DNA from: a virus
Direction: 5' to 3' (one strand)
Virus record (IMG/VR): IMGVR_UViG_3300043811_000226
DNA: 64,000 nt
The notes below the pieces were generated by a model. The model was not told the origin of the DNA. It saw only the letters and a program-made list of their open reading frames with translations, and did not search any database. Position numbers and translations under genes: made by a program. This document shows positions 4,845-30,095 of the stretch, in pieces; the first letter of the stretch is position 1; each line of letters starts with the position of its first letter.

Positions 4845-4881
4845 TGTCCCCGATAACGCGTCGCTCGTACTGCCAGAAGAG

Positions 4882-5238
4882 TGGACCCGCGGGGAATCGA
4901 ACCCCGGTCCGACAAACCGTCTGAACGTCTTCTTCACGTGCGTGGTCGGTCTAAGGCTCCCGACAGCCTCGCGGTGTTCGACACAGGCATTCCGCCGCCC
5001 GTCAACCTGTCGTGTCCCCAGCTCCCCGGTTGCGAGAGGGCTGCATGGCTCGTGTATTTACGCCTCCCGGAGTACTCGAACTCCTCCTCCGAGAGACGGA
5101 CTAGGCCGCCAGTTTGACGGCGTTGTCGTTGCTTGCGTTGTCGTTCGCAGGCAGGACGTGCTCACTTGATCAGAGCGGATTGAGCGCCGCTCGCACGCAG
5201 ACAGTTCTTCTTGTTCGCCGTCGAAACCGGTCGGGCCC
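4882..5238 (-). ncRNA. ssrA: tmRNA, tag (A)ANDNASNDNAVKLAA*
   Basis: 5' GGGCCCG pairs with 3' CGGGUCC-A including G3.U; T-arm CGGGG-TTCGATT-CCCCG; PK1 stems GAGCGG/CCGCTC and GCTCA/TGAGC; tag ORF 5148-5101 ends LAA-TAG. Confidence 0.97.
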
Positions 5239-27039: not shown

Positions 27040-27492
27040 ATGGAAGGACAAGAACCTGGACTGCGCGCGCAGCTCAGTGCGCAGCAGAGACGGCAGCTGG
27101 AGTACCTCGGACTGACCTCGGAGCAAAAGCCGAGAGAATCCGGGGATAAGAACAGTGGAAGGACAGTAGTTCCGACCACCCAAACCAAGAAGGAGGACAT
27201 CCACATGGAAGCCACGACTCAGGAGACGAACAGGACGCGCAACGAAGAGAACAGCAGCCACCCGGCGGTGGACGCCGTCGAGCGGAACACGAACCGCATG
27301 GCCAACGCCGCCGAGGCTCTGGTCGGCAGGTTCGACCGGCAGCACAGCTTCAAGGCCGAGGCCATCCGCGTTGGCGCGACGGCCGTGGCCACGGGCATCG
27401 TGACCGGCCTCGTCGTCGTTGGCATGCAGGCGCTGCTGATGCCGGACACGGTCAAGGTCGAGCAGGTCGTTCCCGGCACGCCGAAGAAGTAG
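27040..27492 (+). CDS. membrane protein with two in-frame starts (27040 and 27205)
   Basis: both ATGs preceded by AGGAGG; C-terminal TM GATAVATGIVTGLVVVGMQALLM. Confidence 0.65.
   Translation: MEGQEPGLRAQLSAQQRRQLEYLGLTSEQKPRESGDKNSGRTVVPTTQTKKEDIHMEATTQETNRTRNEENSSHPAVDAVERNTNRMANAAEALVGRFDRQHSFKAEAIRVGATAVATGIVTGLVVVGMQALLMPDTVKVEQVVPGTPKK
27124..27151 (+). promoter_or_regulatory. conserved bipartite promoter-like motif (copy b)
   Basis: CAAAAG-N16-ATAAGA, then ACAG-TGGAAGG. Confidence 0.7.
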
Positions 27493-27506: not shown

Positions 27507-27534
27507 AGTGCTGCCCTTCGGGGCGGCACTTTTC
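27507..27534 (+). terminator. intrinsic terminator
   Basis: AGTGCTGCCC-TTCG-GGGCGGCACT then TTTC. Confidence 0.75.
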
Positions 27535-27556
27535 ACTTAGCCTCTCAGGGGTTCAG

Positions 27557-27584
27557 CAAAAGCGCCTCACGCCGCGGCATAAGA
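27557..27584 (+). promoter_or_regulatory. conserved bipartite promoter-like motif (copy c)
   Basis: CAAAAG-N16-ATAAGA, then CTAC-TGAAGG. Confidence 0.7.
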
Positions 27585-27588
27585 CTAC

Positions 27589-27701
27589 TGAAGGGTCCCA
27601 CCGCTCCCAAAGGGCCTCCTCCTTCTTGTCTGCGCGGGATGCCTTCACTCGGCGCTCATCCCCCTGGCCGTGGGGGGTGGGCGCCGTTCTTTTTTTTTTT
27701 T
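27589..27701 (+). ncRNA. candidate small RNA with exposed anti-SD loop
   Basis: bounded by promoter motif c and a strong terminator; 5' stem TGAAGG/CCTTCA plus TCCC/GGGA; loop CCTCCTCCTTCTTG; no ORF. Confidence 0.6.
27650..27701 (+). terminator. strong intrinsic terminator
   Basis: 15-bp stem CGGCGCTCATCCCCC/GGGGGGTGGGCGCCG, then TTC and a run of 12 T. Confidence 0.85.
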
Positions 27702-27798
27702 AGGGTCTGTGCCTACTGCTCCACACTTGACATCTTCTTTTTTACCCTTGCGGTGCCGCGCGACAGAACGTACATCTACAAGAAGAAAGGAGGACGCC

Positions 27799-28083
27799 AT
27801 GAACACGATGACCACGGAACTCGACAACGACAGGTACGACGCTGCCAACGAAGCCGTCCTCTTCTGTCTGACCTTCCTCTCGGAACGGGAAGAGCACACG
27901 GCTGCCAGCTGCATCGAAGGGATCGACGCCATCATCGACCAGCGAACGGGTCGCATCGCATACAACCGCCTCTTGGCGGCGCACCGGTGCACACGTGACG
28001 TTGCGGCGAAGTACACGCTCAGCACCGCAATGCACACGGTCGAGCGCGCGCTTCACGTACAGGCTCTCCTAGCTGCGAGCTGA
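27799..28083 (+). CDS. hypothetical protein
   Basis: SD AAAGGAGG before ATG 27799. Confidence 0.6.
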   Translation: MNTMTTELDNDRYDAANEAVLFCLTFLSEREEHTAASCIEGIDAIIDQRTGRIAYNRLLAAHRCTRDVAAKYTLSTAMHTVERALHVQALLAAS

Positions 28084-28085
28084 CG

Positions 28086-28114
28086 CAAAAGTCTCCTCCT
28101 AGCGCGGCATAAGA
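28086..28114 (+). promoter_or_regulatory. conserved bipartite promoter-like motif (copy d)
   Basis: CAAAAG-N17-ATAAGA, then CCTC-TGGCGG. Confidence 0.7.
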
Positions 28115-28158
28115 CCTCTGGCGGACACCAGAGTGTCTGCCGACGCTAGGAGGAGACC

Positions 28159-29625: not shown

Positions 29626-29672
29626 CGAATAGCGCGCGCCCGCGAGGGCTGCGCGCTATTATTTAGCCTCCC

Positions 29673-30095
29673 ATGCTTCGACAAGCACTCGACCGCGACA
29701 TCCCAGGCATCCTCCGGCTCGAGGGGATGCTCTTCTCCAACTCGATGAGCGAGGAGATGATCGTGCGCGAGCTGCAGGTGGGGCAAGGCTTCGTGCTCGA
29801 GGCTGCGACGGAGAACCCCGTGCTCGGCTACATCCTGGTCCGAGACGACGGCTATCTGCTCGACATTACCCGGCTTGCCGTCGACCCCCAGCAGCAGCGT
29901 TCTGGTGTGGGCACCGAACTTCTTCGCCACGTGCTGGCAAAGAACCGGACGACGGTTCTCACGGTCAAGAAGAGCAACCATCGCGCGTTCCAGCTCTACA
30001 CGAAGCACGGCTTCGTGATCACGGGACACTTCATCGAGGAGCGCGCGTGGGCAATGCGCCGGGACGTGGAGCTTTTGGAGCGCCGAGCGGGGTGA
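29673..30095 (+). CDS. GNAT acetyltransferase (RimI-like)
   Basis: ITRLAVDPQQQRSGVGTELL (motif A); NHRAFQLYTKHGF (motif B). Confidence 0.88.
   Translation: MLRQALDRDIPGILRLEGMLFSNSMSEEMIVRELQVGQGFVLEAATENPVLGYILVRDDGYLLDITRLAVDPQQQRSGVGTELLRHVLAKNRTTVLTVKKSNHRAFQLYTKHGFVITGHFIEERAWAMRRDVELLERRAG

Follow-up and report, generated by a model that had tools for sequence, protein, structure and literature searches.

The DNA analyzed here (the window) is a stretch of 64,000 nt from IMG/VR virus record IMGVR_UViG_3300043811_000226, and it is part of a large uncultured phage; one of its proteins, of 94 aa, is also found on contigs of 171-195 kb, among them two IMG/VR records rated 92% and 100% complete. 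Genes for a 1210-aa tape-measure-like protein and a collagen-like tail-fibre protein lie upstream of the region of interest, a plus-strand island that extends from 26048 to ~30095 and is bordered by genes on the minus strand. Within this island, an intergenic unit (the RNA unit) lies between a weak terminator that ends the gene of a membrane protein (weak terminator 1) and the promoter region of the gene for the 94-aa protein (Table 1). The membrane protein has a short and a long isoform (95 and 150 aa), the short one starting at ATG 27205; a search found no viral relatives of it, and Pfam and PHROGs gave no match to a toxin or holin family. The 94-aa protein is confidently predicted to form a five-helix bundle (pLDDT 87); a comparison with the PDB gave nothing significant in structure, and neither Pfam nor PHROGs has a family for it. 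In these two databases the neighbors of the RNA unit are without family, except the collagen-like tail-fibre protein. Ahead of the 94-aa gene stands an element (TTGACA...CCTTGC in the locus comparison) that occurs in one copy per genome and marks the downstream limit of the RNA unit; because of this single occurrence it is probably a separate promoter or operator dedicated to the 94-aa gene.

Table 1. Features of the RNA unit and its surroundings (positions in the window; SD, Shine-Dalgarno; RBS, ribosome-binding site).
Feature	Position	Strand	Description
Candidate RBS target, short isoform of the membrane protein	27186-27197	+	12-nt perfect complement of the RNA tract, predicted duplex ~-24 kcal/mol; candidate target in this genome only
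Weak terminator 1	27508-27533	+	Hairpin and short T-run ending the membrane-protein gene; kept in 9/9 loci
Promoter of the phage class	27556-27584	+	GCAAAAG 27556-27562, 16-nt spacer, ATAAGA 27579-27584
5' hairpin domain	27589-27647	+	Closing stem UGAAGG/CCUUCA, inner stems, apical loop CCUCCU; MFE and centroid folds
Anti-SD tract	27614-27628	+	GCCUCCUCCUUCUUG; GCCUCC 27614-27619 is the part invariant across relatives
Intrinsic terminator	27650-27701	+	15-bp stem 27650-27686 (12 G-C), 7-nt loop, TTC, T12 27690-27701
Element ahead of the 94-aa gene	27727-27778	+	TTGACA...TTTTTACCCTTGC...CGTAC (TTGACA...TTTTTACCCTTGC part 27727-27751); in 9/9 loci including the RNA-less L010
RBS region of the 94-aa gene	27778-27794	+	ACAAGAAGAAAGGAGGA; candidate trans or cis partner, 8 + 6 pairs with a 3-nt bulge, -23.5 kcal/mol
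94-aa neighbor gene	27799-28083	+	ATG 27799; invariant ANEAVLFC motif
14-nt perfect inverted repeat	28086-28158	+	GTCTCCTCCTAGCG / CGCTAGGAGGAGAC around the ATAAGA promoter (28109) of the 226-aa gene

Transcription of the RNA unit is predicted to start at ~27589-27591. The predicted folding energy of the entire unit is -55.7 kcal/mol (z = -4.4), and its terminator, at -33.5 kcal/mol, is by far the strongest hairpin-plus-T-run within the 64 kb. The initial annotation had described a 15-bp hairpin and T12 about 110 nt after the promoter with no open reading frame between them, and all of this is confirmed: the promoter-to-terminator stretch holds no start codon with an SD and no credible reading frame. 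Its further statement, that the 5' stem leaves the anti-SD tract largely unpaired, holds for one part of the tract and fails for the other; CCUCCU (27615-27620) forms a 6-nt apical loop with an unpaired probability of 0.99 in the predicted fold, but CCUUCUUG is held by CAAAGGG in a weak 7-pair helix with one G-U pair and one bulge. Separately, the T-runs of terminators in the window (27530-27545, 27690-27706) and in all related loci are regularly followed by (T)AGC(C/T), e.g., TTTCACTTAGCC and TTTTTAGCTAC, which is a conserved punctuation.

A 25-aa TTG frame (27626-27703) and an ATG frame beginning at 27639 were rejected as genes, both running through the terminator, and coding potential of the RNA unit was rejected on both strands. 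The conserved letters could in principle be a minus-strand signal, with GGAGGC serving as the SD of a tiny reading frame, inasmuch as AAGGAGGAGG is followed on that strand by TTG and a 21-codon frame, and a 31-aa GTG frame lies at 27553-27648. This is extremely unlikely: no start or peptide is conserved among the lineages described below, the orientation of the promoter and of the T-run terminator is that of the plus strand, and every gene of the island is on that strand.

ATAAGA occurs at eight sites in the window, six of which have a GCAAww-like box 16-17 nt upstream. Five of these boxed sites (26022, 27146, 28109 and 29362 on the plus strand, 8866 on the minus strand) lie 15-55 nt before an SD and start codon; the sixth, at 27579, is the only one that leads to a terminator and not to a gene. 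The ATAAGA at 22334 (minus strand) was rejected as a second unit, being at the end of the tape-measure gene and followed by an overlapping ORF with a GTG start. In the complete genome of a relative (G002), ATAAGA-N3-7-GRAGG is present 13 times vs once for a reversed-pattern control, ATAAGG variants occur as well, and, among UGGAGGC sites with a start codon and reading frame behind them, 10 of 18 are found 4-5 nt after an ATAAGR box. The consensus of the class is GG(G/A)ATAAGR-N4-TGGAGGC with the start codon close behind; since TGGAGGC follows ATAAGR by only 4-5 nt, mRNAs of this class would start almost at their SD. Judged by its position before genes and by its enrichment, the motif is real as a class of putative promoters. 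The full two-part form, GCAAww-N16-(G/C)ATAAGR with TGGAGGC 4-5 nt later, has at least 18 sites in G002; the class is probably undescribed, and its reader is probably a phage-specific or alternative sigma factor. Several class transcripts open with a 5' hairpin, as does the candidate RNA. A class promoter and a 5' hairpin (GUGGAAGG...) also lie inside the long form of the membrane-protein gene (27124-27205, plus strand) and are kept in distant relatives (L002 4327, L009 2329, L008 2363); this conservation supports separate expression of the short isoform.

Relatives of the region were sought with the 94-aa neighbor as anchor, and eight further loci were recovered. A conservation search in related phages had been proposed as a check in the initial annotation. 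Units of the same build occupy the same syntenic place in seven other loci (L006, L001, L007, L002, L011/L012, L009 and L008) and are absent from one (L010), where a gap of 173 nt is found at the equivalent place. Every unit lies between the weak terminator of the membrane gene and the TTGACA...CCTTGC element, and gene maps of two further relatives show gaps of 311-337 nt at the place of the unit, enough room for it. The units fall into two lineages. In the first (window, L006, L001, L007) GCAAww-N16-ATAAGA is present, and a 5' hairpin starting with (U)GAAGG precedes the terminator; in the second (L002, the identical L011 and L012, L009, L008) the -10 box is decayed or absent and no promoter is recognizable, the 5' hairpin is closed by GUGAGA/UCUCAC, and the terminator hairpin is long. 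Stem sequences are not shared between the two lineages. However, GCCUCC is found in the apical part of the 5' hairpin in all eight distinct units, with a mean unpaired probability of 0.53-0.99 in predicted folds vs 0.32-0.45 for the whole RNAs; an invariant, mostly unpaired motif of this kind is what an accessible seed of a trans base-pairing sRNA would look like.

Lineages that keep the RNA unit share just 25-47% identity in the neighboring protein. For the window and L006, identity is 93.4% in the 5' domain vs 72-90% in the flanking genes, and it is unbroken from the -10 box (27578) to 27634; the differences lie in a bulge, in the linker, or as a paired deletion in the terminator stem, and in other relatives the terminator stems are preserved through two-sided changes. 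L002 and L009 agree at 88% in the 5' hairpin vs 58% and 76% in the flanking genes, and at 91% in weak terminator 1. Two independent comparisons thus show the 5' hairpin to be better conserved than the flanking coding DNA, and it ranks as the best conserved part of the region. Because the MAFFT alignment of all units is poor, no family-wide covariation statistic is claimed. A covariance model made from second-lineage units detects no paralogue in a complete 194-kb relative or in the window, and the RNA unit is for this reason regarded as single-copy. The same model weakly touches the units of the window and L006 (E 0.016 and 0.14), mostly over the terminator; the case for a common ancestry of the units of both lineages rests on synteny, build and the shared motif, and not on the model. 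Comparison with cultured phages by blastn returned nothing relevant to the RNA unit; a metagenome scan gave no locus beyond those recovered through the 94-aa anchor, and a genome scan gave none.

These data bear on the view that the stretch has no RNA function and is a transcriptional insulator made of tandem terminators, combined with the leftover class promoter and leader of a lost gene. The 5' end, ATAAGA-N4-TGAAGG, does resemble the start of a class mRNA, L010 lacks the unit, and the promoter is decayed in the second lineage. However, a relic is not expected to surpass the rest of its region in conservation in two independent comparisons, nor to retain a loop with GCCUCC in lineages that have no stem sequence in common, and this view is held to be improbable. 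The element is likely a real one, selected as RNA.

The anti-SD tract invites comparison with the RBSs of the island. As initially reported, TCCTCCTTCTTG (27617-27628) and CAAGAAGGAGGA, the latter at the RBS of the short membrane-protein isoform, are exact reverse complements; CAAGAAGGAGGA ends 7 nt before ATG 27205, and this 12-mer occurs at no other place in the 64-kb window. When the 5' domain was shuffled with dinucleotides preserved, 5 of 5000 shuffles reached a 12-nt match in the nine initiation regions of the island, and when permutation was confined to the nine bases behind an unchanged CCTCC core, 40 of 5000 did so for the same nine regions; because so few shuffles reach it, the match is unusual in this genome (p ~0.001-0.008), and it exceeds chance even for a pyrimidine tract facing purine-rich RBSs. 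The bulged pairing with the downstream RBS is also as the initial annotation described it.

The relatives do not keep these extended pairings. In the closest relative, L006, the RBS of the membrane gene reads CACGAAGGAGGA and the RNA tract is unchanged, so that this target-side change, which is uncompensated, leaves a match of 9 nt plus a mismatch; in L007, L002, L009 and L008 the match is 4-5 nt. L002, L009 and L008 can pair with this RBS through GGAGG only, and in L007 it is the poorest partner of its locus (-8 kcal/mol). Extended pairing with the RBS of the 94-aa gene is likewise not conserved among relatives, and the GAAAGGAGGA core of that RBS is kept even in the RNA-less L010. In L002 the terminator loop matches the downstream RBS over 8 nt; this lead was rejected, since L011 does not keep the match. 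The proposal that the RNA is a repressor of the upstream membrane protein, in the manner of a type I antitoxin, is not supported by this comparison. A dedicated repressor of the short isoform, antitoxin-like or c4-like, would account for the 12-nt perfect complement over the SD and for the fact that the RNA adjoins the 3' region of the membrane gene in every relative that has the RNA; yet with an uncompensated change already in L006, only 4-5 paired nucleotides in the four other loci, and a protein of 95/150 aa that matches no toxin or holin family, it has a low probability.

A different regularity recurs among the loops. The four second-lineage units all have the loop GCCUCCA, which complements the UGGAGGC leader motif exactly, and the L007 loop, GCCUCCUC, is complementary to GAGGAGGC at two RBSs of the same locus. 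That each loop fits the SD context prevalent in its own phage is suggestive, within small samples that are no proof of a target set. Because extended complementarity is not kept for any single orthologous RBS, "target" here rests on a generic SD complement of 5-8 nt, and such a complement is offered by nearly every gene. A naive duplex scan of the whole window is uninformative, because long GC-rich duplexes swamp it; when the scan is restricted to initiation regions, island genes rank 3rd, 10th, 12th, 20th and 32nd among 389 SD-plus-start sites by the energy of the duplex with the seed, which is high but not unique. The broader alternative in the initial annotation, action on strong-SD mRNAs at large, fits these observations better than targeting of the membrane protein does.

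The lack of a conserved specific mRNA target would also be compatible with a protein-binding RNA, or with a mimic of the 16S 3' tail that acts as a decoy for a tail-recognizing factor. The bacterial 16S 3' end carries a conserved CCUCCUU tail, and CCUCCUCCUUCU in the window resembles this 3' end. However, the conserved part of the loop is GCCUCC only and not a longer tail-like stretch, and no partner protein is indicated, the helical 94-aa neighbor having no informative fold match; a decoy is very improbable.

A cis function requires closer attention because anti-SD elements are common in this phage. CCTCC is present in the spacer of ~8 of 22 class promoters (window, G001 and G002), where it is complementary to the SD just downstream. 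In the hairpin formed by the inverted repeat at 28086-28158 (-58.2 kcal/mol, z = -9.9) the SD of the 226-aa gene is buried in read-through RNA, and in RNA initiated at the 28109 promoter it is left largely open in the predicted fold. In phage T4 genes e, soc and 49, an anti-SD upstream of the promoter pairs with the downstream SD, and only promoter-proximal transcripts are translated. In the window, too, one predicted hairpin encloses an internal promoter, and 28086-28158 is, on the modeled folds, a control of the T4 gene e/soc type. Promoter-embedded hairpins that sequester an SD, known from T4, would thus be in wide use in an unrelated, high-GC phage clade.

By analogy, the RNA unit could be a cis-acting anti-SD element of longer transcripts, produced by read-through from the membrane gene or past the unit's own terminator into the 94-aa gene, such that only transcripts from the proximal promoter are translated, as for T4 e and soc. 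This reading draws on the use of the device elsewhere in the phage, on the centroid fold of read-through RNA 27589-27805, the only predicted fold of it that pairs the anti-SD with the downstream SD, and on the second-lineage unit, which has no promoter of its own and lies behind a weak terminator. However, the anti-SD is cut off from the downstream SD by the strongest terminator of the window, with its T12, and behind this terminator comes a separate conserved promoter-like element; the two arms are 165 nt or 430 nt apart here vs 15-60 nt in proven cis cases, and extended complementarity to the SD of either neighbor is not conserved. A cis role is accordingly possible but unlikely.

The explanation that best accommodates these results is a small non-coding RNA gene whose loop initiates pairing with SD regions, and it is held with middling confidence. 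The part of the initial annotation that called the unit a small non-coding RNA with an anti-SD loop is supported by comparison, as position, 5' hairpin, GCCUCC and terminator are kept across lineages. The product would be an RNA of about 100-113 nt. In the lineage of the window it would be transcribed from its own phage-class promoter and stop at the strong intrinsic terminator; in the second lineage, with its decayed promoter, it would arise by read-through of the weak terminator of the membrane gene, as an sRNA of the 3'-UTR type. The apical loop of the 5' hairpin would present GCCUCC, in the same sense as the anti-SD core of 16S rRNA, and the most likely consequence is loop-initiated pairing with the GGAGG(C) SD regions of mRNAs, by which binding of the 30S subunit would be blocked. 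In the window, if the weak inner helix opens, the pairing could grow to as many as 12 bp at the RBS of the short isoform. Phage mRNAs of the same promoter class, which carry their SD ((U)GGAGGC) at the 5' end or close to it, would be the likeliest targets, and host mRNAs are possible as well. We infer that the RNA unit is transcribed and is probably a translational regulator of the phage, with repression as its presumed effect; that its loop acts on SD regions in trans has about an even chance of being correct.

Combining this RNA with the cis elements gives a more speculative and rather doubtful picture, a two-tier control of translation by RNA only, in which cis anti-SD arms and a single-copy trans RNA would serve one promoter class. 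In the first tier, read-through copies of a gene would be kept silent by the anti-SD arm in its promoter spacer; in the second, the loop of the trans RNA (GCCUCCA in one lineage), complementary to UGGAGGC as the class-specific SD at the 5' terminus, would switch off or buffer the class at a set time of infection.

Comparison with Rfam gives no hit at gathering level for the RNA unit and only chance-level hits at E up to 10; the sole thematically related one, below threshold, is the CcsR1 model, with 11.5 bits vs a gathering score of 65.3 (E 4.4). Pairing of loop-borne anti-SD motifs with RBSs is established for cuckoo/CcsR/NfeR1 RNAs and for sRNAs of the RNAIII type (PMC4615179). The cuckoo RNAs (CcsR1-4/RSs0680a-d, alpha-r14 and NfeR1; Rfam RF02791 and relatives) carry the anti-SD CCUCCUCCC in the loops of 2-4 adjacent motif hairpins with highly variable stems, and end with a terminator (PMC4615179). 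The present RNA is likewise small, with an anti-SD in a hairpin loop, variable stems and a terminal terminator, and its loop tract CCUCCUCCU has 8 of the 9 bases of CCUCCUCCC. However, it has one motif hairpin rather than 2-4, its relatives keep only GCCUCC with varied bases around it, and it belongs to a phage, whereas cuckoo RNAs are chromosomal (Alphaproteobacteria) and often co-transcribed with a DUF1127 gene, with Hfq binding as a further characteristic. In the Firmicutes, the pyrimidine-rich loops of RsaE/RoxS and of RNAIII hairpins seed SD pairing in several mRNAs (PMC4615179); their motif is UCCC/CCCC and they are host-encoded, unlike the GCCUCC of the present unit, which has no similarity to them in sequence or model.

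The c4 RNA of phages P1 and P7 is a phage small RNA that prevents translation of a nearby phage gene through loops base-paired around the RBS (PMC12197685), and the present unit resembles it as a phage-encoded small RNA with a loop complementary to a nearby RBS. Unlike the unit, which lies downstream of one candidate target and in one lineage has its own promoter, c4 is processed from the transcript of its target and lies upstream; its complementarity is specific and matched phage by phage, as opposed to 12 nt in the window, an uncompensated 9 nt in L006 and 4-5 nt in the others. As for type I systems, their toxins are hydrophobic and usually under 60 aa, in contrast to a protein of 95/150 aa with complementarity that is not conserved. 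The enterobacterial 3'-UTR sRNAs (DapZ, from an internal promoter; CpxQ, by processing) share with the unit a position behind a protein gene and an end at a terminator, and one lineage of units has an internal promoter (DapZ type) and the other has none; they differ in that a weak terminator hairpin separates gene and RNA here, and there is no homology. The build of T4 e and soc recurs in the window at 28086-28158, but the RNA unit departs from it in that its anti-SD is separated from the nearest downstream SD by 165 nt and a strong terminator. Since the RNA unit does not conform to known families in number of motif hairpins, in model score or in conserved specific complementarity, the best reading is that of a new sRNA family, which so far has turned up only in one small clade of uncultured phages of ~170-195 kb.

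To our knowledge, few phage-encoded sRNAs are known, and most of these come from enterobacterial prophages; we found no described sRNA family from large uncultured soil-type phages. If the element is real, this phage carries its own RBS-masking RNA, which is constrained more strongly than the neighboring proteins, and a loop of 6-7 nt together with a defined promoter class would offer a compact handle on the timing of translation in such phages.

Other features of the window are recorded here in their own right. A full-length, one-piece tmRNA (4879-5238, minus strand) is found with Rfam at 82.5 bits; ARAGORN did not report it. Two tandem tRNA-like genes (17250-17406, plus strand) have non-standard anticodon loops, to which ARAGORN assigns four-base "anticodons" and no amino-acid identity. 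Within the island, a GNAT acetyltransferase gene has no SD; a T-run and the anti-SD-like AGCCTCCC stand before its ATG (29652-29675, plus strand), and this start context is kept in L006 (4824-4847) and L007 (5205-5228). The start may be leaderless, coupled or mis-set.
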